A stretch of DNA of 64,000 nucleotides, taken from assembly GCA_043814985.1 (NCBI GenBank), contig JBDRJK010000011.1, forward strand, positions 1 to 64,000, read 5' to 3'. Below the pieces are notes generated by a model. It saw only the letters and a list, made by a program, of their open reading frames with translations. It did not search any database and was not told the origin of the DNA. Below are positions 36,297-62,291 of this stretch, piece by piece. The position numbers and the translations under genes were made by a program. Every line of letters begins with the position of its first letter. The first letter of the stretch is position 1. This DNA comes from Candidatus Aenigmatarchaeota archaeon (GTDB lineage: Archaea > Aenigmatarchaeota > Aenigmatarchaeia > Aenigmatarchaeales > Aenigmatarchaeaceae).

Positions 36297-36313
36297 TCCT
36301 GCCCTCCGCATTA
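36297..36313 (+). repeat. 17-bp direct repeat copy 2
   Basis: exact match at 35780-35796. Confidence 0.8.
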
Positions 36314-36464
36314 ATCAATAAATAATTCCAGCAACAATTCTCTCTATGGAACTTTCTTCTAATGCTTCGCTTTGCGCTAAGTGTAAAGGACGAATATAAT
36401 TTAATTTTCATTAAGTTATTTTCACATAAGGTGGTTAATAATCAATAAATATTCCACCAACAAT
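36312..36464 (+). promoter_or_regulatory. duplicated promoter-like element (36312-36338 and 36439-36464)
   Basis: TAATCAATAAATAATTCCAGCAACAAT vs TAATCAATAAAT-ATTCCACCAACAAT, each 7-8 nt before an ATG. Confidence 0.7.
36346..36399 (+). pseudogene. displaced 5' fragment of nreA (MELSSNASLCAKCKGRI*)
   Basis: LCxxCKG matches the Nre N-terminus (MNLCVRCKG); shared TGTAAAGG. Confidence 0.7.
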
Positions 36465-36472
36465 ATTTAGTT

Positions 36473-37708
36473 ATGGATAATGGAATAGTTGATTTCTGGT
36501 CTTTACCCCATGACAAAATTTATTTAAATTTAGAAAATGAATTAAAGGAAAAAATTTTCAATTCTTCAAAAGAATATGCTGGGAGCTGGAGCAAATTAGG
36601 AAAATGTCTTGGCCTTTCCCTAAACAAATATGGAAGCTGTAAAATTATAGAAAGTGCTAGATGTAAAAAATTTAGTTTATTTTTACTTGATAAAATTATA
36701 GATTATTTGAATTCTAATGGCGAGAAAATAGATAAGAAGAATATAGAAAAGAAAATAACAGTACTTTCCTCTAAAAGAGGAGGTTCAAACAAGTTAGCCA
36801 ACAGTATTTTCAATCCAAAGATACCCTTTAATTTTAATACTGTTGACGGTGCTACTGTCCTTTCTTCCATTTTTTATGATGGTGGAATTAACAGCAACCT
36901 ATTGCCTCATTATAGTAATCCAGACAATGTAGAACTGAGGAAAAGTGTGTTCGATTCTTTCACAAATGTTTTTGGCACATTCAAATCTAAAAAAAGCAAC
37001 CCCTTAGAAAATCCTCAGCTATACTTCCCAAAAATAGTCGGAGTAATTCTTGTTTATGGTTTAGGATTATCTTATGGAAGAAAAGTTGTAAATAATCCAT
37101 CCATACCAGAATTCTTATTTGAATCCTCTGAAGAAATAAAATCATCATTTCTTCGACAAGCCTTTGATGATGAAGGCTCTGTCCACAAGACTAAAAGAAA
37201 TATAAGTTTCAAATTGGCCTCTTCTTCTGAAAGACCTGCTAAACTTCTTACCGGTGTAAAATGTCTGTTAGAGAGTCTAAACATAGAGAGCAATGGTCCT
37301 CATTATGTTGATACATACAATACTAAGAACGGCATTACAGCTTCCAGATGGAGAATATCTGTAACACATCAAGATAATTTAAAAAAGTTTTATGAAAAAA
37401 TTGGTTTTCATTCATCCTATAAGAAAAATAGACTTAAGAATATTATTCATACATTAAAATACCCTCATTATTCTGTTAAAAATAGAAACAAAATTATTAT
37501 AAAATCTTGCAGTGAACTTCAAAAAAGATACGGTTTTATAACTAGCAGAGAACTTGCAATACAAATCGACAGAAGTCGGGTCTTAGCTAAAAAGGTTATT
37601 CGAAAATTAGTAGATAGGAAAGTTCTCTTAGTTAAAGAATGCCGCCATGGAAATATGGGAGCTAAATATGTTTTAAGTGATAATTATGAATCTTTGTGTA
37701 AGATGTAA
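36473..37708 (+). mobile_element. free-standing double-motif LAGLIDADG endonuclease with C-terminal winged helix
   Basis: motifs SSIFYDGG and FLRQAFDDEGSV, FYEKIGF; no intein splice residues; AT-rich. Confidence 0.85.
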
Positions 37709-38900
37709 AGGTACTAGGATTTTATGTGGAAAAAGTAGTTGTCCATTGTTGATAAAGTTCTATAGTTATATGAGAACTAAACCACTTATTGATTCGACTA
37801 CTCTCAATGGTTCATCGCCACCAGCTTGCTTTGTAGGTTCTTATGGATATCCCAAGGTTTTCGTGGGGCCCTTGGTGCCGCCGAAACACGGTGACACCAG
37901 CTTCATGGACACGCCTGAGATGTGGAGGGGCAAGACAATGTGGGACATAGTCGACTTCAGGTTCCAGCTGGTGAGGGGCAAGTTCGTGACTGATGTCAAG
38001 AACTTTGAGGGAAAGATAATCGAGCGGACTAGGGAGATTGCCCTGGCTCAGGAGTCTCCCAGTGCTGAGGTTGAGTTCAAGAACAAACCAAGAGGATTAT
38101 CCTTTAACAGTGAGACACAGCCCTTTGGTCCGTCGGCAAATGTCATTGGCCTTAATATTGAAAACAAGGGCTACAACAAGAAAATAGAAAAAGCGTTCTA
38201 CGACACTGACCTGAAGGCTGTGCCTGCTGTTGTTGATCTTTACAAGAACGGCGTGCTGATTTCAAAAATACAGAAGGCTTTTTCTGTGGGTGCGTTTGGA
38301 ATCGGAAAGAGCAGGAGATTCGTTCCAACGCGCTGGAGCATAACAGCTGTTGATGACATGATTTCAAAACATCTCATAGAGCAGGTAAAAACATTCCCGC
38401 TGATAAACGAGTATCTGGTTTACGAGCACGCTGCTTTGGACAACCGCTGGTTTGTTTTAATGATACCACACGAATGGAGTTACGAGCAGATGGAAGCGTG
38501 GTATCCCAAGACATTGTGGAACCCGTCTGATGCAATTGACATATCAACAGCATGGGAAGGTTTCAACGGACTAAAGGGCTATCCGGATACAGCTGGCTGC
38601 TACTTTTCCACGAGGCTGGCTGCCACCGAGTACCTTGCCAATGAAAGGAGGCAGGCTGCTGTAATAGTATTCAGGGAAATCCATCCAGGTTACACTGTTC
38701 CTGTGGGTGTCTGGCACACCCGAGAGAGCATAAGGGATGCTGTCAAGAAAACTCCTGTTAGATTCAGCTCAATGAGTGGCGCCTTGGACTATCTGTCAAA
38801 GAAGATGACCATACCTGTTAAGAGGTGGGTTGAAAAATCCAGTCTTCTTAGGAACCTGATGCGACAGAGAAAGCTGTCAGACTTCATCAAGCCTTTCTAA
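37686..38900 (+). CDS. nreA: Nre DNA repair protein
   Basis: CxxCKG...LCG...CP, GSSPP.FVG..GYPKV, VPTRWSITAVD, C-terminal PIP box QRKLSDF. Confidence 0.93.
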   Translation: MNLCVRCKGTRILCGKSSCPLLIKFYSYMRTKPLIDSTTLNGSSPPACFVGSYGYPKVFVGPLVPPKHGDTSFMDTPEMWRGKTMWDIVDFRFQLVRGKFVTDVKNFEGKIIERTREIALAQESPSAEVEFKNKPRGLSFNSETQPFGPSANVIGLNIENKGYNKKIEKAFYDTDLKAVPAVVDLYKNGVLISKIQKAFSVGAFGIGKSRRFVPTRWSITAVDDMISKHLIEQVKTFPLINEYLVYEHAALDNRWFVLMIPHEWSYEQMEAWYPKTLWNPSDAIDISTAWEGFNGLKGYPDTAGCYFSTRLAATEYLANERRQAAVIVFREIHPGYTVPVGVWHTRESIRDAVKKTPVRFSSMSGALDYLSKKMTIPVKRWVEKSSLLRNLMRQRKLSDFIKPF

Positions 38901-38926
38901 GATAATTTAAAGTAAGGGCTGTGCTA

Positions 38927-39571
38927 CTAGATGCCCAATAACATTGCAAGGGATTCAGAATCATGTCTCACGAAAGTTGCTCTGGGCCATTTTTTCTTTT
39001 GCTCTTTCTTGATTCTGTTTAGAGTACTGTTGTCAAACGACCTATAATCATCTGTTGCTATATTACAACCGAGTTCCACTGAAGCTACTGCCACTGAGAA
39101 ATCTCCATTCTCTTTCAGAATTTCTGAAATAACAGGATATTTTTTTCGATAATATTCGGTTGGCATGAAGGCATTGCATACATTTTCTTTATTTTTTCTT
39201 AACCATTGTTTTATGTTTTCAGTCCCAGCCTTTTTTTCAAAGTTTCTGAGTTCTGCATAAACGTTATTTGTTATTACAGGGCAAATACCAGCATCAATGA
39301 GAAGTCCTTCTTCAATAGCATCAACTATTTTCATTCCCCTTTTATGATAAATAATGCTCTTTTTCATCAGAAATCCTCTTTTTTTCCCGTATGCGTGTTG
39401 TTGGCATTTTAAAAATTCATTTATATTCCTGCTTTCTTTTGGAATTACTGACGATATTAAAATATTCGTGTCAAAGACACTAATGTTTTCCCTTGGAATA
39501 TTTACAAATTTCTCGAAATTAATTTCATCCATGTATATGGATTTTGGATTTAATTTTTCCAGTGTCTCCAT
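38927..39571 (-). CDS. PIN-domain protein
   Basis: VFDTNIL, VYAEL, GDFS, ATDD acidic motifs. Confidence 0.7.
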   Translation of the reverse strand: METLEKLNPKSIYMDEINFEKFVNIPRENISVFDTNILISSVIPKESRNINEFLKCQQHAYGKKRGFLMKKSIIYHKRGMKIVDAIEEGLLIDAGICPVITNNVYAELRNFEKKAGTENIKQWLRKNKENVCNAFMPTEYYRKKYPVISEILKENGDFSVAVASVELGCNIATDDYRSFDNSTLNRIKKEQKKKWPRATFVRHDSESLAMLLGI

Positions 39572-39695
39572 AAGCAAAAAATGTGTATAAAGCTTTAAAA
39601 GTCTTTAATTGGACTTCTTGAAAGCTGTCAGACTCCATCAAGCCCTTCTGAATAAACTTAAAGTACGGGCTGTGCTATTAATAATAGGTGAAAAA

Positions 39696-40370
39696 ATGAA
39701 AACAATAGTCGTTTTGGCAAGTTTGATTCTAATAGTAAGCTTTGCAGTTACAGCATTCGCAGCACAGGAGCAAATAGGTGTTGGAACAACAGCAACAGCA
39801 GTGAAGACAGCAGCAACACCAGCTGCAATACCAGTTAATCAGAAGAACCAGTTCAAACAAACACTGAGAAATTACTTCAAACCAGTTAATCACGGCTACG
39901 GCATAGGCTTTACAGAAGAGACCTATATAACAGCGAAGTGGCACATCACCAATGTCAAGATTTTGCCAAGGGTCAATGTCAATACAATGATAAGGGAAGT
40001 TAAGCAAGGAAACAACACTGACTGGGATGCTTTGAGAACTAGGATAAGAGAAGCATTGAATGCAGGAACCACTACTGTGAAAAAAGGCAGGATAAGAATA
40101 GAGGGAAGGGATTATGCCTTGACCAATATAGTTGTTTCTAGCGAATCAATAACAGCAGACATAAACCAGGTACCGAACTATTCGGCATGCAAGAATGATG
40201 ACTTATCTGCAGAGGATTGTGAAACCAGTTCTGAGAAAGTAGGTGATATCTCAATGACAAAGAAGACCAAGGCAAGCCAGGAAGTGGCAGGCCGTGAGAA
40301 AGTATGGGCTGGAACTTTGACTCTCAATGGCATAGGGTACACATTCGTTACCTTCGTATATCCAAAGTGA
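39696..40370 (+). CDS. secreted hypothetical protein
   Basis: signal peptide; GGTGA RBS. Confidence 0.75.
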   Translation: MKTIVVLASLILIVSFAVTAFAAQEQIGVGTTATAVKTAATPAAIPVNQKNQFKQTLRNYFKPVNHGYGIGFTEETYITAKWHITNVKILPRVNVNTMIREVKQGNNTDWDALRTRIREALNAGTTTVKKGRIRIEGRDYALTNIVVSSESITADINQVPNYSACKNDDLSAEDCETSSEKVGDISMTKKTKASQEVAGREKVWAGTLTLNGIGYTFVTFVYPK

Positions 40371-40374
40371 TTGA

Positions 40375-40656
40375 ATGAACAAATTGATTATAGCTGTGGT
40401 TATAGTGATAATAGCAGCTGTGGCAATAATGATGCTGCCTCCAGCTAAACAGGAAACAGGAACATCAGACACAGTTACAATTCAGGAAGGGGCAACAGCA
40501 GAACAGACAACAGTGGACGAGTCATACCTTCTAGAGGATTTGTACATCAGCATGCTAGAAGAGGAAATGGATGCCCTGGATATGGAACAGACAGACTACA
40601 ACAGCGAGATGGAAGAACAACTAGCTTCTGATATGAGCCAATTCTATTACGAATGA
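40375..40656 (+). CDS. membrane-anchored acidic protein
   Basis: N-terminal TM, D/E-rich remainder. Confidence 0.7.
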   Translation: MNKLIIAVVIVIIAAVAIMMLPPAKQETGTSDTVTIQEGATAEQTTVDESYLLEDLYISMLEEEMDALDMEQTDYNSEMEEQLASDMSQFYYE

Positions 40657-40693
40657 TTTTCTTTTTCTTTTGTTTTAATTTATTTAGAATTAG

Positions 40694-40828
40694 TTATTGA
40701 CTGAACAGTCCGAGTCTTCTTACTGCATCTCTGACAGCCTCGGACCTGTTAGGGTAAATGCCCTGTTCAATTAATTGATCAATCTTCTCTATCAATTCTC
40801 TTGTCAGCCTGATTTGTATTGGGTGCAT
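40694..40828 (-). CDS. ribbon-helix-helix regulator (CopG/CdrS-like), absent from the ORF track
   Basis: manual translation MHPIQIRLTRELIEKIDQLIEQGIYPNRSEAVRDAVRRLGLFSQ. Confidence 0.85.
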   Translation of the reverse strand: MHPIQIRLTRELIEKIDQLIEQGIYPNRSEAVRDAVRRLGLFSQ

Positions 40829-41038
40829 TTAATCACTTTAGAAAACTTGGACAGAAAAGGATTTAAGCTTGAATTTTTTTTGTGCTTCTATAAGTTTTCT
40901 TATAAAAGTGCGTAATTTGTAGGACAAGTGTTAGACAAACGTAGTTGATGCGTAATGCTGGAAAAGCAATAAATAGTTTCAGTTACCATTAATCTTTGTG
41001 TGTTTTACACAAAAAAATATTCTATGTGAGGTGAGTAA

Positions 41039-42115: not shown

Positions 42116-42131
42116 TGACACATTCGTAGAA

Positions 42132-45764: not shown

Positions 45765-45775
45765 TAAAAACGCTG

Positions 45776-45797
45776 CCCTTTCCTTTATTTTTATTTG
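45776..45797 (+). terminator. oligo-T terminator
   Basis: CCCTTTCCTTTATTTTTATTT after the stop; similar tract near 50380-50400. Confidence 0.5.
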
Positions 45798-47511: not shown

Positions 47512-48554
47512 ATAATGTATCAAGCATCATAATACCGGTCTATAATGAAGAGAAGATTATCATGAATATGCTCAAAAAGAATGTCAAGGTTTTTGAAAAC
47601 AGCAATATGGACATCAAGGAGATAATCGTGGTTGATGACGGTTCCATTGACAACTCAAAGAAGGAGATTAAGAGATTCATAAGGGATTACAAAGGCAATA
47701 TTGACATCAGGCTGATTCCCCACACAACAAACATGGGAAAGGCCCAGGCTCTTAACACGGGGATAAGGCACGCCAATGGGGAATACGTTCTCTTGTCTGA
47801 TTCGGACTCTTTCATGGATGTTGAGGCGCCTGAAAAGATTATTCTGAAGATGAGAGAGACAGGGGCTTCATGTATTGTAGGACATGTTGTGCCTGCTCAG
47901 AACACCCTTCTGACGCGCCTGCAGAGGATGGAGTATGACTTTGACCAAAAGGTAATAAGAAGGGTGCAGTCCCTGTACACCAACGTGATATCAATTCCAG
48001 GACCGCTGTATTTCACCAAAAAGAGCATTGTTGAAAAGATAAAATTCGACAAGTACAGCATTGTCGAGGATTTCAAGATCGGGATTGAGATGAACAAGAA
48101 GAGGCAAAGGATAGTCCCGACTGATGCCGTGGTATACTCTTATGCCCCTACCAACTTTTCGCAGCTCAGGAAGCAGAGGCTCAGATGGTTCGGGGGAGTA
48201 TTGAAGGAGACCCTGAGAAACAAGGATGTCTGGAAGACCAACCCGTTCTATTTTTCCAACGTGCTGATGTGCTTCACGTCGTTCTTCTTCACCATATCAA
48301 CCGTAACTTTGTTTGGCCTGATGCTTTACTTCGCTACAAACCTGCCCAACCTGCTGGTAAACTTCGTGCTGTTCTTCCTTTTCTTCTGCTTTACAATTTC
48401 AGCTGTTTATGCCCTGTCTATAAGAAGGTTCGAGTTGGACACTTTCCTGGCATTCCCGCTCTATCTGACCTTCTTGTTCATAGTCAGGACAGAGGTTGTC
48501 ATAAAAGTTGTTTTGAACAGGAAGTTCGTTTGGGGGACAAGGGAATACCGTTAA
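47508..48554 (+). CDS. family 2 processive glycosyltransferase
   Basis: IIPVYNEE, DDGS, GKAQALN, DSD, VED, QRLRW, C-terminal TMs. Confidence 0.92.
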   Translation: MNNVSSIIIPVYNEEKIIMNMLKKNVKVFENSNMDIKEIIVVDDGSIDNSKKEIKRFIRDYKGNIDIRLIPHTTNMGKAQALNTGIRHANGEYVLLSDSDSFMDVEAPEKIILKMRETGASCIVGHVVPAQNTLLTRLQRMEYDFDQKVIRRVQSLYTNVISIPGPLYFTKKSIVEKIKFDKYSIVEDFKIGIEMNKKRQRIVPTDAVVYSYAPTNFSQLRKQRLRWFGGVLKETLRNKDVWKTNPFYFSNVLMCFTSFFFTISTVTLFGLMLYFATNLPNLLVNFVLFFLFFCFTISAVYALSIRRFELDTFLAFPLYLTFLFIVRTEVVIKVVLNRKFVWGTREYR

Positions 48555-48874
48555 TCAGTAGTGTTTCCCTTTAGGAGAATTTCAATTATCTGCGGCAAAG
48601 AATTGTTTATTGTATTGACAATATTCTCCAGTATCCTGTTGAACAAATAGCCCAATGCACTGTTCGCCCTTTCTGCCAGAACATTAGTGATGTTAGTACC
48701 TTCAAACAAATCCAAGATATCAGAGACCCTGGTCTGGTTGAACACGGTTATGTTGGGAAGCCCCCTGATGGTGATGTTGGGGATCCTTATGGTTATGTTG
48801 GGAATAGTTATACCTTGGGCCATCACAACAGGAGAAAGTAGCAGGAACACCGCAAAAACCAGAAAGGCTTTCAT
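48551..48874 (-). CDS. small secreted protein with PNIT repeats
   Basis: signal peptide, three PNIT units, several N-x-S/T sequons. Confidence 0.7.
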   Translation of the reverse strand: MKAFLVFAVFLLLSPVVMAQGITIPNITIRIPNITIRGLPNITVFNQTRVSDILDLFEGTNITNVLAERANSALGYLFNRILENIVNTINNSLPQIIEILLKGNTTD

Positions 48875-51536: not shown

Positions 51537-51677
51537 TTATTTTCTACTTTGAATAGAGAGTATGTCCCCGTTCTTCAGCTCATAGTCAGCAGAGACTCTC
51601 TTCTTTGTCCTAGCATCGATTGCTCCAATGAACTTGTCACCAATATCAGTGTGAACCTTGTAGGCAAAGTCAAGGGC
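51537..51677 (-). pseudogene. diverged duplicate of the last 47 codons of ychF
   Basis: 16 mismatches in 141 bp vs 54821-54961; frame intact, no start codon. Confidence 0.92.
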
Positions 51678-51720
51678 CTGTAGGTATCAACTTTATATTA
51701 TTGTTGTCAGAATTATAATA

Positions 51721-53838
51721 ATGAAGAAAGTTATTTTATTTTCTATAATAGCAATAGTCTTGCTGAGCTCAATAACATTGGCAATGACAGACGTGAGAGC
51801 GTCAAATATTAAATCTAATAGAGTTATAGCGCGCACAAATTCTCTAGCAGACAGGATGCTATTCAGAATGCAGGGGTGCAAAATAATTCACGAGCTGGAA
51901 GATGCGACTGCAATGAATTGCCCAGAGGCAATTGCTTCGAGATTCGAGCAAGATGAAGTTCTTTATATAATGGATTTACAAGCAGACCAACAGATAGGGG
52001 CGGACAAGGTTTGGGCTTTGGGTTATGACGGTTCTGGGGTAACAGTCGCGGTTTTGGATACAGGAGTTGATTATGACCATCAGGAGCTGTCAGACAGCAT
52101 AGTTGGAGGTATAAGCTTTGTCTCATACACATCTAGCTATTCTGATGACCATGGACATGGAACACATGTCTCAGGAATAATAACTGCCAATGGTGTTGTA
52201 GCCTCTGCAGAAGGCGTTGCGCCAGGAGCAAAGGTATGGATGGCAAAAGTTTGCGATTCTGGTGGTTCTTGCTATACGAGCGATATAGCAGCTGCGATTG
52301 ATTATGTTGTTGATGGGCCTGATGGTGCACCAAATACAGGAGACGAACCAGCAAAGATAATGAGCATAAGCTTGGGCGGCGGAGGAACTTCTAGGTCAAA
52401 TTGTGATAATGATTACTTGGCTTCAAAAGTTAACTGGGCAGTAAGCAAGGGTGTGACTGTTGTAGCAGCAGCAGGCAATACCGGAAGAGTAGTTAGCAGC
52501 CCTGGTTGTGCAAGCGGGGCAATAGCAGTTGGGGCAGTTGACAAAGGCGATGTAAGACCATCTTGGTCTGGCTCAGGCAGTGCGTTAGATATAGTTGCAC
52601 CAGGGGTAAGCATTTATTCTAGTTTGCCGGGCGGCGCTTATGCGTCTTGGAGCGGTACTTCAATGGCAACACCGCATGTTTCAGCAACAGTGGCTTTGAT
52701 GAGGCAGGTGAACCCGAGCTTAACAGACAGTCAAATCAAAAGCATACTTTATTCAACAGCCAAAGATTTAGGAAGTGCAGGATGGGATAGATATTATGGC
52801 TGGGGAAGAGTCGACGCCTACAATGCATACTTGGCTGTTAAACCAATAGAACCTGAATGCACAATTGATTCAGAATGTGATGACGGATTATACTGTAATG
52901 GAGCTGAGACATGTATTTCAGGAGTTTGCCAATCAGGAGCATCTGTTGGCTGTTCCTATTTAGATAATCAATGCAATGTTGGAATTTGTGATGAAGCTTC
53001 AGATAGTTGTGTGGCACAACCAAGACCCGACGGAACTTCTTGTAATGACGGTTTGTTCTGTAATGTAGGAGAAACCTGTCAGGCTGGAGCATGCGGCGGA
53101 GGAGAGGCTTACACCTGTGGTGTTAATGACACTTGTACTATTGCTTCTTGTGATGAATCATCAGATAGCTGTTCAAGTTCACCAGTAGCAGACGGAACAA
53201 CATGTGACGATAATTTGTTTTGCACAGTGTATGACGCTTGTACAAGCGGTATTTGCGGTGGAGAACAAATAAACTGTAATGACGGTGTAGGATGCACTGT
53301 TGATTCTTGCAACGAGGGAACAGGCTCTTGCGATAACACGCCGGATAATTCAATATGTGATGATGAAATATATTGTAATGGTGTGGAAACATGCCATGCA
53401 ACATCAGATTGCCAGGCGGGAATCCCAGTAAATTGTAATGATAATAATTTTTGTACAGCAGATAGTTGCGTTGAAGGTTTAAAAACATGTGAAAACGTCT
53501 GGGAGGCATGTGGTTCGACGGATGGATGCTGCGGACCCGATTGCAATAGTATAAATGATCCAGACTGTGCAACAGCTGTTAAATGCTGGAGCGGAGATTA
53601 CCAATATCTCTACAGGAATTCGAATCAGATGAAAAAATTCTGCAAGTGTGCAATGGGTATTTATGGATACAATAGTTACAGTTATAGTTGGGGAAGGGAA
53701 ACAGTTTATTATTATTTAGACTCGGGAAACAATGAAGAGTGGGATACAAATTCAAGGTCATCATATCTTCCAGTAAACAAAGTAGTTTGTGCAGACGGTG
53801 AACCATACTCGACTGGCGAAGATTACTACTACGGTTAA
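51721..53838 (+). CDS. secreted S8 subtilase with C-terminal Cys-rich repeats
   Basis: VAVLDTG, HGHGTHV, AAAGN, GTSMATPHV; repeated C(D/N)DG..C units. Confidence 0.95.
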   Translation: MKKVILFSIIAIVLLSSITLAMTDVRASNIKSNRVIARTNSLADRMLFRMQGCKIIHELEDATAMNCPEAIASRFEQDEVLYIMDLQADQQIGADKVWALGYDGSGVTVAVLDTGVDYDHQELSDSIVGGISFVSYTSSYSDDHGHGTHVSGIITANGVVASAEGVAPGAKVWMAKVCDSGGSCYTSDIAAAIDYVVDGPDGAPNTGDEPAKIMSISLGGGGTSRSNCDNDYLASKVNWAVSKGVTVVAAAGNTGRVVSSPGCASGAIAVGAVDKGDVRPSWSGSGSALDIVAPGVSIYSSLPGGAYASWSGTSMATPHVSATVALMRQVNPSLTDSQIKSILYSTAKDLGSAGWDRYYGWGRVDAYNAYLAVKPIEPECTIDSECDDGLYCNGAETCISGVCQSGASVGCSYLDNQCNVGICDEASDSCVAQPRPDGTSCNDGLFCNVGETCQAGACGGGEAYTCGVNDTCTIASCDESSDSCSSSPVADGTTCDDNLFCTVYDACTSGICGGEQINCNDGVGCTVDSCNEGTGSCDNTPDNSICDDEIYCNGVETCHATSDCQAGIPVNCNDNNFCTADSCVEGLKTCENVWEACGSTDGCCGPDCNSINDPDCATAVKCWSGDYQYLYRNSNQMKKFCKCAMGIYGYNSYSYSWGRETVYYYLDSGNNEEWDTNSRSSYLPVNKVVCADGEPYSTGEDYYYG

Positions 53839-53847
53839 AAATTCTTT

Positions 53848-54273
53848 TTATTTCCTGCTCTGTACGGGAAGGTATTTCTCTGTAAGCTCTTTTTTCATAG
53901 AAAAAATTTTGTTTATTATTTCCTTTCCTTGCCCAAATTCAATCTTTGTTCCATAATAATTTATGCTGTTCCTTATCCATCTCAATCTGTCAAACTTCCC
54001 ATAGTCAAAGCCCTTGAGCAAGTCTTTCAGTAGTTCCCCTATGCAGACGTGTGATAGAACCTTGTAGCCCTTGGAAATGCAGACTGCCTCCAGAACCTCC
54101 CTCAGAGAATCATAGGCAAGGGAGACATAAGCAGATATGTTTATGCTGTCAATCGGCGCCTTCCTTACTGCCATCTCCTTTATGTAGGACATTTCTAACA
54201 ATGACTTGACAAGCTCCCCATCTATTCTAGCCTTCTTTATCAACCCTTTCTCAAAGCATTCACTTAAGTCCAT
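53848..54273 (-). CDS. HEPN-domain protein (toxin-like)
   Basis: AYDSLRE, GYK..SH, RWIRNSINYYG; overlaps MNT gene. Confidence 0.8.
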   Translation of the reverse strand: MDLSECFEKGLIKKARIDGELVKSLLEMSYIKEMAVRKAPIDSINISAYVSLAYDSLREVLEAVCISKGYKVLSHVCIGELLKDLLKGFDYGKFDRLRWIRNSINYYGTKIEFGQGKEIINKIFSMKKELTEKYLPVQSRK

Positions 54274-54812
54274 TCAATACTACCCTCTATGGCTATGCCG
54301 TTCAGCACGTTGCTGATAAGATGCTTGTTTTTAAGCTCTTTAACATTCTTTACCACAAAGAGTTGTAGCGTTCTGTTCAACCTCTTTTCAAACTTCCTGG
54401 TTTGAGGAAATTCCTTTGTCTTCTCGGAGACAACCAGCAGGTCGAAATCGCTTGTTTTTGTGTCAAGACCACTCGCGGCAGAGCCAAAAAGGACAATTGC
54501 CGGTTTCATATAGAATGCGTTCAAGGCAGCGACCAGACCCGATTTCCTCAGCTTCCTTATGTTATAGTAGGTCTTCAGGTCCCTGTAGGAGTCGCTTTCA
54601 AGGTCCGACCTGTACAGATTGAAGCCCCTTTCCTTCCTTTCCTTCAGAAGGCCCTCCTTTGCCATTCTTTTCAGTTCCTTGCTCGCAGTCGCCGGTGAGA
54701 TTTCCGAAAGCCTGGCAACCTCCCTGACATTGAATTCCTTGGCAGGGTCCTCAAAGAATATTTTCAGTATGTTTAATTTATTGAACATATGTTTAATTTT
54801 ATGAACAGACAT
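54264..54812 (-). CDS. winged-helix plus minimal nucleotidyltransferase (MNT antitoxin-like); alternative start 54788
   Basis: VREVARLSEISPATAS HTH; LFGS...SDFD. Confidence 0.88.
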   Translation of the reverse strand: MSVHKIKHMFNKLNILKIFFEDPAKEFNVREVARLSEISPATASKELKRMAKEGLLKERKERGFNLYRSDLESDSYRDLKTYYNIRKLRKSGLVAALNAFYMKPAIVLFGSAASGLDTKTSDFDLLVVSEKTKEFPQTRKFEKRLNRTLQLFVVKNVKELKNKHLISNVLNGIAIEGSIEWT

Positions 54813-54820
54813 TTAAATAA

Positions 54821-55951
54821 TTATCTTCTGCTTTGAATAGAGAGTATGTCTCCGTTCTTCAGCTCATAGTCGGCAGAGACTCTTTTCTTTGTCCTAGCAT
54901 CGATTGCTCCAATGAACTTATCACCGATGTCCGTATGGACCTTGTACGCCATGTCCAAGGCAGTTGACCCCTTGGGTAAGAGAAACACGTCTGGAAGAAC
55001 ATTGCCCTTCTTGTCAGACATTTTGGATTCGTTCTCAACAGGAAAAACAGCAATGTAATTAAGGAATTCAAAGACAGCCTTGTTCAGGCAGTCCTGGACA
55101 CCGGTTGAACCATACTTGTCAAGAACAACCTTCCTTATCAGCTCAAGGCCCTTTTTCTGGTTCTCGTTCAGCTCCTTTTTTATTTCAAATGTCTTGCTTC
55201 CAGGGACATAGTCAATGAAACTTACCTTGGATGCAGTCCTCAGAGTTATCTCTGCCTCAGCAGAGCAGGGAACAATGGTCAGCTCAGGAAAATCACCCTT
55301 CATCCTTTCCAGATTGTCATGAGAGCTCGGCAAGTCAATTTTGTTGGCAGCTATAAGAATCTGTTTTGAAAGCTTTCTCAGCTCCCTTGCCAAACCCAAG
55401 GGTTCCAGCCCAGCCTCGTTAAGAGCAGTTTCAATGTGATCGGGCTTGATTCCCAGACCAGACAAGATATCAGATGCCTTCTCCTTGTCCCTTATCTTGG
55501 CAAGGTTCCTCTTGATGACTGAAGCAAACCAGAGCTCAATCTCATTCTCCAGGAACTTCACGTCTTCAGAGGGATTGTGCTTGTCTGTTGCATTGCCCTC
55601 AGCATCTGTTTTCCCAGACGCGTCGACAATATGTATCAGCATATCTGTCTGTATGATGTCAGTCAAGAACCTGTTACCCAAGCCTTTCCCCTCGTGGGCT
55701 CCTGGAATCAAACCAGCAACATCCCACAGCTTTACAGGTATCATCCTTGTCCCGTTAACGCACTGGGAGTTCTTGGGGCTGCACTTCAAGCCCAGTTCCT
55801 TGCAAGGACAGTCTGTAGTAACATAGGCAACACCAACATTGGGTTTGATCGTGGTGAACGGCCTTGAGGATATTGGGACGTCAATCATGGTCGAAGACTT
55901 GAAAAAACTCGACTTACCGGAAGATGGTTTACCGCAGATAGCAATTTCCAT
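54821..55951 (-). CDS. ychF: YchF-related Obg-family GTPase with TGS domain
   Basis: GKPSSGKS, PFTTIKPN, DVAGL, NKID, TGS domain. Confidence 0.92.
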   Translation of the reverse strand: MEIAICGKPSSGKSSFFKSSTMIDVPISSRPFTTIKPNVGVAYVTTDCPCKELGLKCSPKNSQCVNGTRMIPVKLWDVAGLIPGAHEGKGLGNRFLTDIIQTDMLIHIVDASGKTDAEGNATDKHNPSEDVKFLENEIELWFASVIKRNLAKIRDKEKASDILSGLGIKPDHIETALNEAGLEPLGLARELRKLSKQILIAANKIDLPSSHDNLERMKGDFPELTIVPCSAEAEITLRTASKVSFIDYVPGSKTFEIKKELNENQKKGLELIRKVVLDKYGSTGVQDCLNKAVFEFLNYIAVFPVENESKMSDKKGNVLPDVFLLPKGSTALDMAYKVHTDIGDKFIGAIDARTKKRVSADYELKNGDILSIQSRR

Positions 55952-56023
55952 GTTTTATCACAAATTTTTACTATGCTTAACAATACAAAATAATTTATAT
56001 TAAGGTTTGATTAATATATCCTT

Positions 56024-57120: not shown

Positions 57121-57158
57121 AAAAGTATTTAGATATAAAGGCAATATATAATGATTTT

Positions 57159-57425
57159 ATGAGGAAGATAGTAACTCTGATGGTGCTGGCGTTTATAGTT
57201 TTTTCAATAGCAACAGCACTACTTCTTTTTGAAATAATATTCGGAGGAGGGTTAGAGGATTACAGCGTCATAATATGGAACTTTGCAATTTCCATTGTTT
57301 TGGTCATTATTGCGATAACCATTATCAGGTACAGGCATGACAAGAAGAAAAGGGGAAAGAAAGAGAAAAAGGAAGTTGTATATTATGAGGCAGAAGGCGA
57401 TGACTACAGAACAGAGTATTATTAA
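57159..57425 (+). CDS. small membrane protein
   Basis: two TM segments. Confidence 0.65.
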   Translation: MRKIVTLMVLAFIVFSIATALLLFEIIFGGGLEDYSVIIWNFAISIVLVIIAITIIRYRHDKKKRGKKEKKEVVYYEAEGDDYRTEYY

Positions 57426-57447
57426 ATTTTAAAACTTAATTCTAATT

Positions 57448-58257
57448 ATGCCGACAAATGTTACTATTGGTTATGCCAAGGCCCAGGCGAGGTACCTTAG
57501 CGCAAAGACCAAGGAAGAGAAGATTGCTGCTCTAGAAGATATGATAAGCGAGGCGCCTTCCCACAAGGGCGGGGAGAACCTTAGGAAGCAGCTGAAGCAG
57601 AGGCTGGCAAAGATGAAGCAGCAAAAGGAGGCCAGCACCTCGAGAAATAGTTTCAACATTCCCAAGAAAGGCGATGCCCAAGTCTGCATTCTAGGCATGA
57701 CGCAAACAGGCAAATCAACCATATTGACTATACTGACCAATGCCAGACCGAAAATATCTCCACACAAGTTTACAACAGAAAAGCCCCAGATAGGGACAGT
57801 GGATTATCAAGGCGTTAAGATACAGATGATAGAGATACCATCCACATTCAAACCAATGTTCATGAGCATAGTGCACAGCTCTGACGCATTGGTTCTGGTT
57901 TACAGGAACAAGGATGATTTAGAAAAGATAAAGGACATAATGTCCAAGTTCAGAATCAGAAAGAAATACATAGCAATAAGCAGGGACGAGGAACCCGAGA
58001 AGATAAAGGAAAAGCTATGGGGCATTCTTGGTCTGATAAAGATATTCTGCAAGGAGCCTGGCCAGAAGCCAGAGAAAACCCCAATGGTTCTGAAAGAAGG
58101 CTCGACTGTGGAGGATGCTGCAAGTGACCTTCACAAGGACTTTTCAAAATATTTCAAGTTCGCAAGGGTGTGGGGTTCCTCAAAGTTTCCAGGTGAAAAG
58201 GTCGGTCCGGAATACAAGCTGGAGGACGGAGACGTGCTGGAAGTCCACATAACTTAA
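57448..58257 (+). CDS. shortened DRG/RBG1-like GTPase with TGS domain
   Basis: MPTN, P.HKG.E, G..QTGKS, FTT, FARVWG, LEDGDVLEVH. Confidence 0.88.
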   Translation: MPTNVTIGYAKAQARYLSAKTKEEKIAALEDMISEAPSHKGGENLRKQLKQRLAKMKQQKEASTSRNSFNIPKKGDAQVCILGMTQTGKSTILTILTNARPKISPHKFTTEKPQIGTVDYQGVKIQMIEIPSTFKPMFMSIVHSSDALVLVYRNKDDLEKIKDIMSKFRIRKKYIAISRDEEPEKIKEKLWGILGLIKIFCKEPGQKPEKTPMVLKEGSTVEDAASDLHKDFSKYFKFARVWGSSKFPGEKVGPEYKLEDGDVLEVHIT

Positions 58258-58961
58258 GAAAATTTCAATCCCTTCAAATCATTATATAATTCTAAAAATG
58301 ATTTTCTCATTTGATTTGTTTTCTGTTCATTGGTTTCAATTCCATATACCATCTTGAAAAGCCTTTCAAAGTTCCTTGGTTTCTTCTTTAATTCAAGAAT
58401 CTCGTTAAAGAGATTGTCTTCACTTGAGGGTCTTGTGTCGTTTAGTATAAACAATGCATGAGACATACTGTTCCATTCCCTCATTAAGAACATGTTCTTT
58501 TCTAAATTGCTTGGAGGTGTATTTTTCAATTTGTCAGCATACAATTGTGACTCTTCAATGTAGGTTTTAAAGGCCTCTTTTTTCTTTTGTTTTGGGACTG
58601 ATATTATATAATTCTTCAATTTTTCAAGGATTTTACCAGGATCGTATAAAGCAAGGGCATTCATGACCAATCCTGAAGCCAACCAACAACCAACTTCAAA
58701 ATTGATTTCGGAAACCAATCCTTTTTCTGTGTTGTAATTAAAGTCTATTATAATCCCACTGATTTTTTCATGCCTTATGTTAAAAATATCTAGATTTTCA
58801 GGAATTTTCTTAACGATTATCAATAAATCTATGTCCGAACCCTCTCTTAACCTGTCAGTCGCTAGAGAGCCGTACGCAAGAACGGCAATTAAATTCGAAT
58901 CCTCCTTTAGCTTACTAGTGGCATCATTCGCTATTTTGAGATACTTTTCTCTTAATTTCAT
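58254..58961 (-). CDS. nucleotidyltransferase-domain protein with helical C-terminal domain
   Basis: YGSLA...SDIDL, LYDP. Confidence 0.82.
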   Translation of the reverse strand: MKLREKYLKIANDATSKLKEDSNLIAVLAYGSLATDRLREGSDIDLLIIVKKIPENLDIFNIRHEKISGIIIDFNYNTEKGLVSEINFEVGCWLASGLVMNALALYDPGKILEKLKNYIISVPKQKKKEAFKTYIEESQLYADKLKNTPPSNLEKNMFLMREWNSMSHALFILNDTRPSSEDNLFNEILELKKKPRNFERLFKMVYGIETNEQKTNQMRKSFLELYNDLKGLKFS

Positions 58962-59018
58962 ACAACCAATTAATCATTTTTTGGGCGTTTATAAATATTT
59001 ATCAGAACAAATAGTAGT

Positions 59019-59390
59019 ATGGAGATTTCTAAGAGGAATATGCCTTTGCCTGACAACTGGTATTCTGCAATAGAAAAGAGCAAGGAGAAGGCAAGGAAGC
59101 TGCTAAACCAGGTAATTGCAGTTGATTTGAACACTTCGATAGTTGTCGGCAGGCTGGAGGATGTCTCGCTGGACAAGCTTTTCAGGATACAGTACCCGTT
59201 CTGCAAGTTAACACTGAGCATGTCAAAGAAGTACAGGATCGACGAAAAGCTGGACAAGTCTTCTGCCGGCGACCAGATAGCGTTCGTGAACAAGCCGCGG
59301 ATGATAATGGACATGACTGAATTATCAACAAAGTTCCCGAGGATACATGAGGACACCCATGTTGACATAAAGAGAGGAAGGTTTGGATAA
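59019..59390 (+). CDS. hypothetical protein, possibly Sm-like fold
   Basis: VIAVDLNTSIVVGRLEDV...LTL. Confidence 0.6.
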   Translation: MEISKRNMPLPDNWYSAIEKSKEKARKLLNQVIAVDLNTSIVVGRLEDVSLDKLFRIQYPFCKLTLSMSKKYRIDEKLDKSSAGDQIAFVNKPRMIMDMTELSTKFPRIHEDTHVDIKRGRFG

Positions 59391-59581
59391 TGGCTTTGAA
59401 ACAGATTGAATCAAGAGAGGACAGGAGCGAGGACAGAGCCCCGTGCCCAAGATGCGGCGAAAAGGCACTGATAATAGATGGCAGATTCATCAGGTGGCTC
59501 ACATGCCCGAGCTGCAAGTTCAAGAAGCTTATAGAGAAACAGGACGAGAGTACAAGGGTAAGGGTAGTATCTCTTAAGTAA
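59390..59581 (+). CDS. small zinc-ribbon protein
   Basis: CPRC...CPSC; GAGG RBS-like upstream. Confidence 0.7.
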   Translation: MALKQIESREDRSEDRAPCPRCGEKALIIDGRFIRWLTCPSCKFKKLIEKQDESTRVRVVSLK

Positions 59582-59613
59582 TTATTTTAAATGACACTCG
59601 TCATAATTCTATT

Positions 59614-60975
59614 ATGTTAAACAATTATTCTCCAAAAATAAGGAATGTTCTGAAAAAGGGTAAGATAAAGGTTGGAGACAGGATTTCTGTTACAAAAGGT
59701 AAGAAGACTTATGAGGGCCTGTTGATGCCTAGAGCCGAGATAGGAGATTTGAATTCTATTGTAATTAAATTGGATAATGGTTACAACATAGGCATAAGGT
59801 TTGAGAAAGGAACAAAAGTTAATAAGAGCAAGAAGAGAGAGCCCAGGAAAATCAAGGATGAGATGAAGTTCGAGATGGGTAAGGAGAAGTTCAAGAAACT
59901 GAAATTCGATCCTAAGAAGCCTAAAGTAGCTCTTATAATGACTGGTGGAACTATTGCTTCTAGAGTTGATTACAAGACAGGCGGTGTCAGAGCCTTGGAA
60001 AAGCCAGAGGAGCTTGTGGCCAATGTTCCTGAACTGAAGGATATAATCTACATAAAGGATGTTTCCACTCCCTTTAGGAAGATGTCTGAGGACTTGGGTC
60101 CAAAGGACTGGCAGAAGTTGGCAAAGGTAGTAGCAAGAGAATTGAATAAAAACAGGGGAGTGATAATTGCTCATGGAACAGACACTATGCATTATACTGC
60201 TGCTGCCTTGTCTTTCATGCTGAAGAACGTCTCCAAGCCAGTTGTTTTAGTTGGTTCACAGAGGTCTTCTGACAGAGGAAGTTCTGATTCTTCAATGAAC
60301 CTTATCTGCGCTGCCCATGTTGCCATATCAGACATCGGGGAAGTTGGAATATGCATGCACGGCTCAACAGACGACCATTACTGCTATTTCACAAGAGGAG
60401 TAAGTGCACGAAAACTTCATAGTACCAGAAGAGATGCTTTTAAGTCAGTTAACGAGCCGCCCCTGGCAAAAGTCTTTCCAAGCGGCAAGATTTCAATTAT
60501 TAACAAGAATCATAAGAAAAGGGGTGATAAGAAAGTAATAGCTGATGTCAAGTTCGAGCCCAAGGTTGCTTTACTGAAAGTTTATCCAGGAAGCGATCCA
60601 GAGATTATGGAATTTTTGCTCAAGAAAGGCTACAAGGGATTTGTCATTGAGGGAACTGGAATGGGACATGTTCCTACATCAGCTGAAAAGTCCTGGATAC
60701 CTACCATTAAGAAATTGACAAAGAAGGGCATACCAGTTGTCATCACAACGCAGACAATATACGGCAGGGTCAATCCTGATGTTTACACGAACCTGAGAAT
60801 CCTGTTCCACGAGGCAGGGGCGATTCCTGCGGAAGATATGCTTAGTGAAGTTGCATACATAAAACTTGGTTGGTTGCTAGCACATTATAAGAATATAAAC
60901 GATGTAAGGAAAATGATGTTAACCAACATGGTGGGAGAAATAAGAGACAGGTCTACTATTGATTCCTTCTTTTAG
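59614..60975 (+). CDS. gatD: Glu-tRNA(Gln) amidotransferase subunit D
   Basis: KLDNGYNIG, TGGTIASRVDY, HGTDT, SQRSSDRGSSD. Confidence 0.97.
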   Translation: MLNNYSPKIRNVLKKGKIKVGDRISVTKGKKTYEGLLMPRAEIGDLNSIVIKLDNGYNIGIRFEKGTKVNKSKKREPRKIKDEMKFEMGKEKFKKLKFDPKKPKVALIMTGGTIASRVDYKTGGVRALEKPEELVANVPELKDIIYIKDVSTPFRKMSEDLGPKDWQKLAKVVARELNKNRGVIIAHGTDTMHYTAAALSFMLKNVSKPVVLVGSQRSSDRGSSDSSMNLICAAHVAISDIGEVGICMHGSTDDHYCYFTRGVSARKLHSTRRDAFKSVNEPPLAKVFPSGKISIINKNHKKRGDKKVIADVKFEPKVALLKVYPGSDPEIMEFLLKKGYKGFVIEGTGMGHVPTSAEKSWIPTIKKLTKKGIPVVITTQTIYGRVNPDVYTNLRILFHEAGAIPAEDMLSEVAYIKLGWLLAHYKNINDVRKMMLTNMVGEIRDRSTIDSFF

Positions 60976-62167
60976 CAGAGAAGATGGAATCCCGGTTTTT
61001 AATGAAAATTTTTACTGAATTCATATCCTTATTAATATTTTCCCTCCCTTCATTATTGACTTTCTTGTATTGTAGAATTTTATTTAAGAGTGCCAATTTT
61101 TTATACGGGTTTAATTCAAAGATGTCATTTTTGTATAGCTTCAGAAAACCATCTAGATTCGTTATTATAATTCTAGGAGGAGATGTTGATGTGGCCTTTG
61201 AAGGGGACGACTTTATATCTAAAAGATTTAGGCATTGGTTTGCCACAGCTAATTCATTATTGTTAACTGAAGCGAATTGAACTGCTCTATCATAACTTCC
61301 TACGTAAGCCTCTCCGGCTAAATAACCTTTGAGATAGTATACTGCTAACTTTCTGTTGCCAATTACTTTCTCTTTAACATGCTCCAATAGTTTTAATATG
61401 ACTCTTCTAAAGATGGTGTTATTGTAATAGATATCTGTAGAACCCCATGGAACATTTTTCCTCATCTTGCCCTTTGTATTTTTAGTATAGTGTGGCGAAC
61501 TAGATTGCTCATTATTGGGACTTAATTTTGTAGTTTTTAGCCAAAACTCTCTAGATGCCTTTTCATCAGATTCTGTATACTTTCTCTTAAGTTTTCCATT
61601 GAAGATTATTCTCCATTTCAGTTTTTCAGGGCTTATTTTAAAGAATTTGAAAAAATCTAAAATCCTTTGTATCATAACAGGTTCGCTGTTAACAAATTCT
61701 AAGCTCTTTGGATTAGTCTTTGTCGCTTCAGCCACTAACAGACCGCAAGAAGACACAATTAACTCATTTAAGGGTATTTCTTTAGGGATAAACATGTAAT
61801 GATTTTTATAGCCTTTGTTGTAGTGTGAAGTACTGTACCAAAGATATGAATAATTTTCTGGTACAACTTTTTTGATTTCTATCCTTTTTACCAGCCTCCA
61901 TTTATCTGAGAATCTGAATGATTTATTGATTTTTCTTCCTTCCGTTCTTTTGACAATTTTCTTATTTTCAAGATTTGATAGGACTTTTCTTACTGTCCTC
62001 TTTTTATAGTTTGAGGACTTGTATATTTCTTTTGTTGTTTTGGAACCATCTTGCAACAAGTCCGTGACCCTCAAATCCAAAGGCATTTTGTCTATAATTT
62101 TTTCTCCACTATTCGAGACTTTAATTTTACTGTCATTTTTTACCAATTCCTTTGTTAGAATTTTCAT
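60956..62167 (-). mobile_element. free-standing double-motif LAGLIDADG endonuclease-like protein with N-terminal winged helix
   Basis: CGLLVAEAT...FVNSEP and YLKGYLAGEAYV motifs; HTH KTTKEI...TVRKVLSNLE; AT-rich. Confidence 0.75.
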
Positions 62168-62220
62168 ATATCTTAGTTCCTCTATCTATATTTAAAAAGT
62201 TTTGTACAACTTATATAAGT

Positions 62221-62291
62221 GCTAAAAAAATGTTAATTGGTATTATGATAGATATTACAAAGAGGACAGAGATAGAGACTTTTATGGTGTA
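62221..62291 (+). pseudogene. degenerate displaced 3' end of gatD
   Basis: AKKMLIGIMIDITKRTEIET aligns in register with GatD RKMMLTNMVGEIRDRSTIDS. Confidence 0.55.

Follow-up and report, generated by a model that had tools for sequence, protein, structure and literature searches.

The window analysed here comprises positions 1 to 64,000 of contig JBDRJK010000011.1 (C11 in our numbering) from the 808-kb, 21-contig draft genome, 91% complete, of a Candidatus Aenigmatarchaeota archaeon (hereafter G000). In this window the genes nreA, gatD and ychF each adjoin an insert on whose far side lies an orphaned copy of one end of the same gene, which we refer to as a stranded end, as opposed to the working end of the intact gene. 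A first-pass annotation of the sequence had described three such insertions, and all of them were found at or near the positions it gave. A fourth was added at the 3' end of nreA, a gene that consequently has an insertion with a stranded copy at both of its ends. The genomes used for comparison of these loci included three relatives of the same genus (G001, G002 and G003, with G002 the closest) and G006 from a different genus.

The working nreA gene (37677-38900 (+); Nre_N, expect value (E) 3e-94; Nre_C, E 8e-39) is preceded by LHE1 (36473-37708 (+)), which encodes a 411-amino-acid (aa) LAGLIDADG protein with a C-terminal helix-turn-helix (HTH) region (Pfam LAGLIDADG_3, PF14528, E 1.9e-8). Beyond LHE1, at 36346-36399 (+), is the stranded native 5' end of nreA, 17 codons followed by a stop. 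This fragment did not match the window's own nreA significantly (E 24), but with the native N-termini of G003, G001 and G002 and the stranded end of G017, a more distant genome, as queries it was the second-best match window-wide (E 1.7e-5 to 1e-3). The corresponding stranded ends had 59 codons in G017 and about 67, with an in-frame stop, in the locus L140. The working gene was found to be a mosaic: its identity to the G002 protein was about 90% from residue ~62 onward and about 55% before. The replacement 5' segment (37677-37860 (+)) thus covers approximately the first 60 codons of the working gene, and in alignment columns 30-60 it was 77% identical to the endonuclease-linked allele of G017. 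LHE1 was absent from nreA in G001, G002 and G003, and in G003 the upstream membrane-protein gene adjoins nreA, indicating an empty site. The longest stranded end, taken as that of G017, stops at a conserved Ser-Pro-Pro-Ser-Val-Phe stretch, at which the endonuclease-linked alleles of G000, G017 and the metagenome contig L142 differ from the native ones; the distant L140 does not have their pattern.

At the other end of nreA there is a 61-nucleotide (nt) direct repeat with 85% identity between its copies (self-blastn, E 7e-11). The first copy (38869-38929 (+)) consists of the working 3' end and 29 nt downstream, and the second (39620-39680 (+)) of the last 10 codons and 29 nt in stranded form; nreA residues 399-407 were identical to the stranded copy at 8 of 9 positions by tblastn. 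Inside the repeat lies a 216-aa open reading frame (ORF; 38927-39577 (-)) that had no Pfam match and is PIN-like by eye only. A homolog with 48% identity was identified downstream of nreA in G001, and none was found at this locus in G002 or G003.

The gatD gene (59614-60975 (+)) has its insert at the 3' end. LHE2 (60956-62167 (-); 403 aa) is convergent with gatD and encodes an N-terminal TrmB-type HTH domain and a LAGLIDADG core. The first-pass annotation had stated that the two HTH-LAGLIDADG genes overlap the replacement termini with their 3' ends, and this was borne out, the overlap being 32 nt for LHE1 (at the nreA start, 37677) and 20 nt for LHE2. Divergence of gatD from its relatives begins about 40 codons before the stop, and the window's ending was unlike those of all 10 relatives compared, 7 of which end in a hydrophobic residue, V and the stop. 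The stranded native end was located at 62221-62292 (+), with the last 13 codons well preserved from 62251 and the upstream part degraded. It is too diverged from the window's own gatD end for a standalone match, but matched the gatD ends of G002, G001, G006 and G003 (E 1.5e-6 to 1.6e-4), with that of G002 giving E 1.5e-6 and 70% identity over 20 aa. In G002 the genes gatD, a 103-aa ORF and gatE are contiguous, which represents an empty site; in the window the 103-aa ORF and then gatE, starting at 62608, come after LHE2. Nucleotide homology between the window and this empty allele is lost near 60950 and returns at 62251, so the insert is approximately 1.3 kb and consists of the replacement end (the last ~8 codons, 60951-60975 (+)), LHE2 and a degraded stretch of the old end.

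Stacked gene ends at ychF

The YchF/YGR210-like GTPase gene (ychF) is located at 54821-55951 (-), and its working 3' end (54821-54961 (-)) is linked to cargo genes. A stranded 3' end of 46 codons, open and with a stop, lies at 51537-51677 (-) and adjoins a 343-aa ORF (orf343). The two copies, spaced 3.3 kb apart, are identical at 44 of 46 residues (E 4.8e-22) and have 88.7% nucleotide identity, with 16 of 141 nt differing, 13 of them synonymously. The largely synonymous nature of the differences indicates that the copies diverged as working ends in separate lineages and were not produced by duplication in place. The cargo between them consists of an S8 subtilase gene (51721-53838 (+); Peptidase_S8, E 1.3e-57), a 141-aa ORF (53848-54273 (-)) and an HTH-nucleotidyltransferase gene (54264-54812 (-); NTP_transf_2, E 1.5e-8). 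All three cargo genes are also present in G001, with 79-85% identity, and are not in the ychF-orf343 interval of G002 or G003. The flanking genes of G000 and G001 are less alike than the cargo (ychF 71%, orf343 48%). At position 51682, contigs of the sequencing runs X1 and X3 matched the window rightward, upstream of the protease gene, and had other sequence leftward, so the cargo also exists in another context in those samples, possibly in a G001-like relative.

The same site is occupied differently in the relatives. Adjacency of ychF and orf343 was observed in G006 and, via a stranded end, in G002, where the order is orf343, stranded end, LHE3 and ychF. LHE3 is an intact 418-aa LAGLIDADG-HTH gene (Pfam, E 1.1e-5) inserted about 30 codons before the ychF stop, at a conserved Ile-Gly-Ala-Ile-Asp-Ala-Arg stretch; it is convergent with ychF and overlaps its stop by 12 nt. 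The stranded native end of G002 has about 30 codons (E 4.6e-16). In G001 ychF has the same arrangement (stranded end, E 6.7e-14), with LHE3 broken into two ORFs. The working ychF ends of G002 and G001 are approximately 60% identical to the native type and look closer to the end in G006.

The order in G000 is orf343, stranded end, protease, 141-aa ORF, nucleotidyltransferase and ychF. That in G001 is orf343, a 286-aa ORF, a weak 20-nt remnant of a ychF end, protease, 141-aa ORF, nucleotidyltransferase, stranded end, broken LHE3 and ychF. The working end in the window is accordingly the positional equivalent of the end that is stranded in G001 behind a later endonuclease insertion. The 20-nt remnant, which would represent the last codons of the oldest ychF end, is a weak match (E 0.13-0.25), and no endonuclease remnant was found between orf343 and the protease gene in G001. 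If the remnant is real, G001 holds a record of three successive ychF ends at one site.

The endonucleases and their recurrence

By domain, fold and acidic residues LHE1, LHE2 and LHE3 qualify as members of the two-motif LAGLIDADG homing-endonuclease class, with DNA cleavage predicted on these sequence-level grounds. In a 15-member alignment of LHE1 relatives D136 and G137 were invariant and D232, D233 and E234 invariant or nearly so; in LHE2 and LHE3 the corresponding motif positions are occupied by Glu or Asp, as judged by eye from their sequences. The relationship of LHE2 to LHE1 is remote. Pfam identified TrmB in LHE2 with E 3e-6 and LAGLIDADG_3 only with E 0.063, and LHE1 and LHE2 had no significant match by BLASTP (E 0.075). 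Profile-profile comparison of the two families, however, gave 96.8% and E 2.5e-10 over 253 columns spanning both motifs. The best fold matches of the LHE2 model, which is of low confidence (mean predicted local distance difference test (pLDDT) score 52, with the N-terminal 128 residues below 50), were WhiA, I-DmoI, PI-SceI and I-SceI, the TM-score for I-DmoI on the target being 0.63-0.68.

Searches for these genes were made in a comparison set of 61 related genomes. LHE1-like matches occurred in 26 of the 61, many of them inside very long ORFs and presumably inteins, and close LHE1 relatives at nreA were found in G000 and G017 only. LHE2 had weak matches in 4 other genomes of the 61 and no match in the metagenome contigs searched. 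LAGLIDADG_3 matches were remarkably abundant for genomes of less than 1 Mb and numbered 40 in G014, 36 in G004, 33 in G040, 25 in G017 and 8 in G000, and many of those within 700-2200-aa ORFs of the order-level genomes are presumably inteins as well.

The nreA cassette was identified in three further genomes or contigs, G017, L140 and L142, whose LHE1 orthologs were 68%, 44% and 64% identical to that of the window, respectively. The endonuclease stop overlaps the nreA start by 32, 32, 16 and 32 nt in the window, G017, L140 and L142. The stranded start of G017 was a clear match (E 1.8e-22), and L140, from a Candidatus Aenigmatarchaeota metagenome-assembled genome, has the same layout as the window. 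The L142 contig starts 318 nt upstream of its LHE1 ortholog. Related endonucleases with stranded ends were also found on other genes, namely at the 3' end of DNA ligase in G004 (E 3.5e-5) and at the 5' end of tRNA-guanine transglycosylase in G010 (E 1.5e-6). A single stop in the endonuclease copy of G004 and the broken LHE3 of G001 are signs of decay. Three cassettes contain an additional ORF between the stranded end and the endonuclease gene: 257 aa in G017, upstream of the endonuclease, 291 aa in G010 and 90 aa in L140. No Pfam match was obtained for the G017 and G010 ORFs, and the three have no similarity to one another. These ORFs indicate that cassettes can hold cargo. The cargo delivery suggested in the first-pass annotation is apparent from position only, and the ychF cargo insert, with no endonuclease of its own, may have another mechanism.

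In total, 30 loci with HTH-endonuclease genes were surveyed, one of them cut by a contig end. Eight had clear stranded ends: nreA and gatD of the window, nreA of G017 and L140, ychF of G002 and G001, ligase of G004 and transglycosylase of G010. Weak stranded ends were seen at Lhr (7 residues, E 0.1) and topoisomerase VI-A (E 0.004). At other loci, where no stranded end was detected, the endonuclease gene adjoins or overlaps an end of RtcA, EndA, a radical-SAM gene, a histone deacetylase gene, topA, prefoldin or a ribosomal protein gene. When the native ends of G000 orthologs served as queries, which covered 15 neighbour genes (for 9 others G000 has no ortholog), the sole gain was the 7-residue Lhr match.

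The first-pass annotation had proposed a survey for enrichment of displaced termini, which was run in part. As a geometry-matched control, the terminus of each neighbour was searched for beyond the middle gene of a triplet with a cut-off of at least 28 bits. Matches at this level were obtained in 4 of 81 endonuclease-centred tests and in 8 of 493 other gene triplets. On inspection there were real stranded ends in 3 of the 81 and 0 of the 493, all 8 control matches being tandem paralogs or low-complexity proteins. The fourth endonuclease-centred match (32.7 bits) was set aside, as by eye it was probably a paralogous clamp-loader start.

A genome-wide scan of G000 for stranded ends used the 40 residues at both termini of those ORF proxies, among the 829 called, that were no shorter than 120 aa. 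Only four stranded ends without tandem paralogy were found: those of ychF, the nreA 3' end, a beta-CASP nuclease gene on contig C14 and the start of an inositol monophosphatase gene on C8. Queries with a gene's own terminus miss diverged stranded ends, the gatD and nreA 5' fragments scoring below 24 bits genome-wide, and the native ends of relatives were needed for their detection. In the beta-CASP gene (G000:C14:66459-66536 and 73542-74783; L169) the last ~26 codons are repeated 7 kb downstream, with 83% identity over 72 nt and differences that by eye are mostly at third codon positions. In G017 the ortholog of this gene has a LAGLIDADG-HTH gene directly after its 3' end. In the inositol monophosphatase gene (G000:C8:27579-27655 and 28233-28309; L170) the upstream region and first 13 codons are repeated 654 nt upstream (77 nt, 95% identity, with similarity resuming after an 8-nt gap), and there is no ORF of at least 100 aa between the copies.

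Further arrangements of LAGLIDADG genes were noted alongside these. An LHE1 paralog of G000 with 30% identity (L067, G000:C14:83821-84846) ends exactly at the topA start, and comparison with G006 and G023 showed that in G000 a NUDIX gene, a 102-aa ORF and this paralog are inserted upstream of topA. In G010 (L069, contig C18, 3277-5644) a family-B DNA polymerase is present as two (-) ORFs, covering Pfam profile positions 43-235 and 240-451, and a 378-aa LAGLIDADG gene (+) separates the two. The polymerase gene may have been split when an endonuclease gene inserted, or it may be a 'fractured gene' with a split intein. On an 840-kb metagenome contig (L147, 3845-7301) a class I aminoacyl-tRNA synthetase gene shares about 149 nt at its start with a LAGLIDADG-HTH gene, and the synthetase frame is broken near locus position 5075, between the first 59 codons and the remainder.

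The remainder of the region was annotated by Pfam scans of 28 ORFs of at least 100 aa in 34.8-64 kb plus one 88-aa ORF, a set that includes all non-nested ORFs from 35862 to the window end except 48551-48874 (-). A PAS-domain gene was identified by Pfam at 35862-36266, upstream of the stranded nreA start, and a block of secreted or surface-type proteins lies between the 216-aa ORF (38927-39577) and the S8 subtilase gene (51721-53838). No integrase or transposase family was found in the scans of the inserts or of the 34.8-64 kb ORFs, in agreement with the first-pass annotation, in which none was visible. In Rfam searches, which did not extend to bulge-helix-bulge motifs, nothing in the window reached a gathering score, and in 35.8-63 kb no intron family was matched even with E allowed up to 5. 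Between ychF and gatD, a DRG-like GTPase with a TGS domain (57448-58257) is just 269 aa long, and the convergent nucleotidyltransferase gene at 58254-58961 overlaps its stop by 4 nt. Relatives share the 269-aa form, which is thus probably normal for the lineage.

Candidate cassettes and alternative explanations

We consider it probable that the nreA 5' and gatD 3' inserts are free-standing homing-endonuclease cassettes that bring a replacement gene end with them and need no splicing. The same holds for the related genes on ychF, DNA ligase and tRNA-guanine transglycosylase in sister genomes, and probably for those on further genes there. Each cassette consists of a LAGLIDADG-HTH endonuclease gene and a short foreign copy of a gene end, 8 to 60 codons long, with its own start or stop. 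The carried end abuts or overlaps the 3' end of the endonuclease gene. Its position is within the coding sequence and close to one terminus; the host gene is full length by way of the carried end, and the native end is left beside the cassette, where it is decaying. Close relatives have uninterrupted alleles at nreA, gatD and ychF, and distant genomes carry an insert at the same site. The stranded ends correspond to the native ends of relatives and the working ends differ from them, which indicates that the working ends arrived with the insert.

We infer from the insertion points that the endonuclease targets the conserved codons at the site of the cassette and cleaves them in alleles that lack it, and that the carried end, which differs at the target codons, would escape cutting. 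Repair of the break would then copy the cassette from a filled allele, with the gene body as the homology arm on one side and the stranded native end and its flank on the other. The cassette occupies a position like that of an intron or intein but makes the gene whole by means of the displaced part that it carries, the stranded native end then being the equivalent of the far exon. A cassette must carry whatever it displaces, so only sites near gene ends would be affordable. In the 5' type the host gene lies directly behind the endonuclease gene and overlaps it, so that host expression probably depends on the cassette and the selfish element would be hard to lose. The endonuclease-free inserts at the ychF 3' end, the nreA 3' end and the beta-CASP gene, each between diverged repeats of a gene end, have the same geometry. 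They may derive from cassettes whose endonuclease has been lost, or have been mobilised in trans, which is the least secure step of this proposal.

Several observations weigh against the cassette interpretation. The target position comes from insertion points only. Of the 30 HTH-endonuclease loci 20 were without a stranded end and 2 more had only weak ones, and no stranded end was found at any of 40 further loci with other LAGLIDADG_3 ORFs, which are mostly shorter (open frames of 144-467 aa). The layout is therefore not general to LAGLIDADG_3 genes, and in this sample only the HTH-bearing group of 340-440 aa has it. At the topA-linked paralog of G000 a search for a stranded topA start found none, and the G002 contig ends there at topA residue 61. 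There is no endonuclease gene in the 3.1 kb between the ychF ends of the window (51721-54812), both ychF copies there retain the native motif at the LHE3 insertion point, and the beta-CASP insert consists of 1792-aa and 495-aa surface-type ORFs without an endonuclease gene. The 68% identity between LHE1 of G000 and G017 is about that of ordinary orthologs of these genomes (64-76%), and judging from identity alone the two may have come by vertical descent with repeated loss. Finally, the coexistence of empty and filled alleles, for which the first-pass annotation had looked to the reads, was not seen in the sequencing runs: no contig joint skipped an insert, with the limit that low-depth contigs drop rare variants. 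The first-pass idea of a homing strategy directed at gene ends is supported in its main lines by the empty sites, the foreign working ends and the recurrence on other genes, with cleavage and homing themselves still putative.

The endonuclease-free inserts lie between direct repeats of a gene end, which measure 141 nt for ychF, 61 nt for the nreA 3' end, with 29 nt of it beyond the stop, and 72 nt for the beta-CASP gene. These repeats could be the attL and attR sites of integrative elements that have since lost their integrase and on which the endonuclease genes are passengers. Integration into the 3' end of a gene with a carried replacement end is known for prophages such as phage 21 and e14 at icd. 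However, no recombinase family was identified in the Pfam scans described above, and the repeats are 83-89% identical with differences throughout, mostly synonymous, and have no long identical core bounded by unrelated sequence. In addition, the same ychF site in relatives holds an endonuclease cassette of just ~1.3 kb, and the endonuclease-bearing inserts contain little beyond the endonuclease gene and the replacement end; integrase-driven integration is in our view improbable. An insert between two diverged copies of one segment is also the geometry expected if host recombination took up a circle bearing a relative's gene end by a single crossover, with the endonuclease cassettes a separate matter. 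The lineage-type synonymous differences between the ychF copies fit such an event, and the higher similarity of the cargo between G000 and G001 (79-85%) than of ychF (71%) and orf343 (48%) suggests transfer. This explanation does not account for the location of the events at gene ends targeted by endonucleases in sister genomes, as at ychF, for the endonuclease gene that directly follows the 3' end of the beta-CASP gene in G017, or for the stacking of ychF ends in G001 (where the oldest remnant is weak), and no circular form or excision product was found in the run contigs. We regard it as unlikely for the endonuclease-free inserts, yet as a credible competitor.

LAGLIDADG genes of archaea are classically intron-borne, and the stranded ychF ends and the last 13 stranded gatD codons are intact, as they would be if the inserts were introns (group I, group II or bulge-helix-bulge) carrying endonucleases, with the stranded ends true exons and the replacement ends read-through artefacts. 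The Rfam searches gave no intron family (bulge-helix-bulge motifs, of which about one chance match is expected, were not part of them). The replacement ends, moreover, are complete and in frame, each with a start or stop of its own. They are conserved from one cassette copy to another and resemble the native ends of other lineages, which an intron would have no reason to carry. The stranded ends decay, as seen in the in-frame stop of L140, the 17-codon truncation in the window and the degraded upstream part of gatD, and the endonuclease genes are separate ORFs on either strand and not in-frame inserts, which also argues against inteins; we judge splicing elements to be very improbable. The same low standing applies to the view that the LAGLIDADG-HTH proteins are domesticated, vertically inherited WhiA-like regulators and the gene-end fragments unrelated debris. 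WhiA was among the best fold matches of LHE2 (mean pLDDT 52), a WhiA-type LAGLIDADG domain was a weak second Pfam match for the topA-linked paralog (E 7e-5), HTH domains occur in all these proteins, and LHE1 is intact in four genomes. Nevertheless, genomes of the same genus have no such genes at the loci, so that the vertical conservation there which the first-pass annotation had weighed as a counter-argument is contradicted by empty sites. Each family member is on a different gene, broken copies exist, and at 8 loci a stranded end lies exactly on the far side of the endonuclease gene. The acidic residues at both LAGLIDADG motif ends, which are not known to be conserved in WhiA, are conserved in the LHE1 family. 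Lastly, strain chimeras formed at repeated gene ends could arise in a metagenome-assembled draft of 21 contigs, and run depth was only ~5. The gatD/LHE2 and MNT/ychF junctions were, however, bridged by contigs from three runs of two studies, the former by contigs of a second sample and the latter by contigs of a second study, without differences, and the same architectures occur in independently assembled genomes, so that an assembly artefact is hardly conceivable.

A broader version of the cassette interpretation, which we advance tentatively and would stop a little short of calling probable, is that small-genome archaea harbour a varied guild of homing endonucleases able to enter essential genes from either end without splicing. 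Its members would repeatedly overwrite termini with foreign versions, capture host expression in the 5' type and carry cargo to reusable landing sites, and the endonuclease-free inserts would be the same elements, moved in trans once their endonuclease had been lost. The cargo in question would be nucleotidyltransferase modules, proteases and giant surface proteins, and the stacked displaced ends at ychF would be a record of repeated replacement. Such cassettes would constitute a third entry route into essential genes besides introns and inteins, in which the element brings a spare copy of the part that it cuts off. They would also provide a concrete mechanism for mosaic, horizontally replaced termini of archaeal core genes, which matters for phylogenies using such genes, and could be one way in which cargo genes reach very small genomes without visible integrases. 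The natural filled and empty alleles point to likely targets and make the three endonucleases directly testable, and LHE1, LHE2 and LHE3 could find use as novel long-site nucleases that possess an additional DNA-binding domain.

Comparison with known systems

LAGLIDADG endonucleases borne by archaeal inteins and introns, of the I-DmoI and PI-SceI type, share the fold of the cassette proteins and likewise occupy highly conserved sites in essential genes, and the relatives of G000 hold many intein copies. Unlike these, the cassettes have no splicing element, and their endonucleases are separate ORFs on either strand.

Free-standing endonucleases such as SegF and MobE, among others, are responsible for 'intronless homing' in T4-type phages (PMC2790892, PMC2988022). 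As in the cassettes, the endonuclease gene is outside an intron or intein, and its spread has been proposed to occur via double-strand-break repair and co-conversion of flanks. The T4-type genes differ in occupying intergenic positions and in cleaving a gene close by in a competing phage; a location inside coding sequence with a replacement and a stranded end is not described in the portions of those papers available to us. One of them reports that the endonuclease of a neighbour can mobilise a defunct element in trans (PMC2790892), which offers a model for the endonuclease-free archaeal inserts.

A free-standing LAGLIDADG gene in an archaeal chromosome, as found here, has been reported from Haloferax glycosylation islands, where it was proposed to drive transfer of its neighbours by gene conversion (PMC5867893). 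According to the same source, free-standing LAGLIDADG genes have mostly been seen in phages. The Haloferax gene differs from those studied here in belonging to the LAGLIDADG_2 family and in having flanks without similarity to coding genes, and an interrupted gene, a replacement end or a stranded end is not described in that text.

The first-pass annotation had mentioned related behaviour of organellar endonucleases, and the closest known parallel to the archaeal cassettes did prove to be the mobile endonuclease ORFs (mORFs) of fungal mitochondria. These form 'gene hybrids' in atp6, atp9, cox2 and nad3 of Glomus and in atp6 of Allomyces macrogynus, each comprising an inserted C-terminus, an endonuclease ORF and the displaced native C-terminus; as cited in that account, the Allomyces element was acquired horizontally and its endonuclease has been shown biochemically to move it (PMC3630166). 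For Endoconidiophora, a further paper describes cob and atp6 genes with duplicated C-termini, accompanied by degenerate LAGLIDADG and GIY-YIG ORFs (PMC6279837). The archaeal cassettes resemble the mORFs in having an endonuclease ORF (mostly LAGLIDADG in the fungi) near a gene end, a carried in-frame copy of that end and the native end beyond the insert. In both, the carried end diverges more from close relatives than the native end does, which in the fungi was read as horizontal transfer and which we observed for nreA, gatD and ychF of G002 and G001.

There are also differences, as far as the available fungal accounts go. The hosts here are archaeal chromosomes and the targets information-processing genes, whereas the mORFs occupy organellar respiratory genes. 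The archaeal cassettes replace 5' as well as 3' ends, in contrast to the C-terminal cases described for fungi, and their endonuclease is a separate ORF, often on the opposite strand and with an added HTH, instead of being fused in frame. They may hold extra ORFs, and replacements appear to have succeeded one another at ychF. A literature search, with subscription journals mostly out of reach, yielded no account of terminus replacement in archaeal chromosomes. Our data support as new the occurrence of mORF-like cassettes in these chromosomes, the replacement of both gene ends, the HTH-bearing endonuclease family, the cargo and the stacked replacements. The cassettes work like mORFs yet are not members of that organellar group, and the parallel suggests convergent, or very old, use of one trick.

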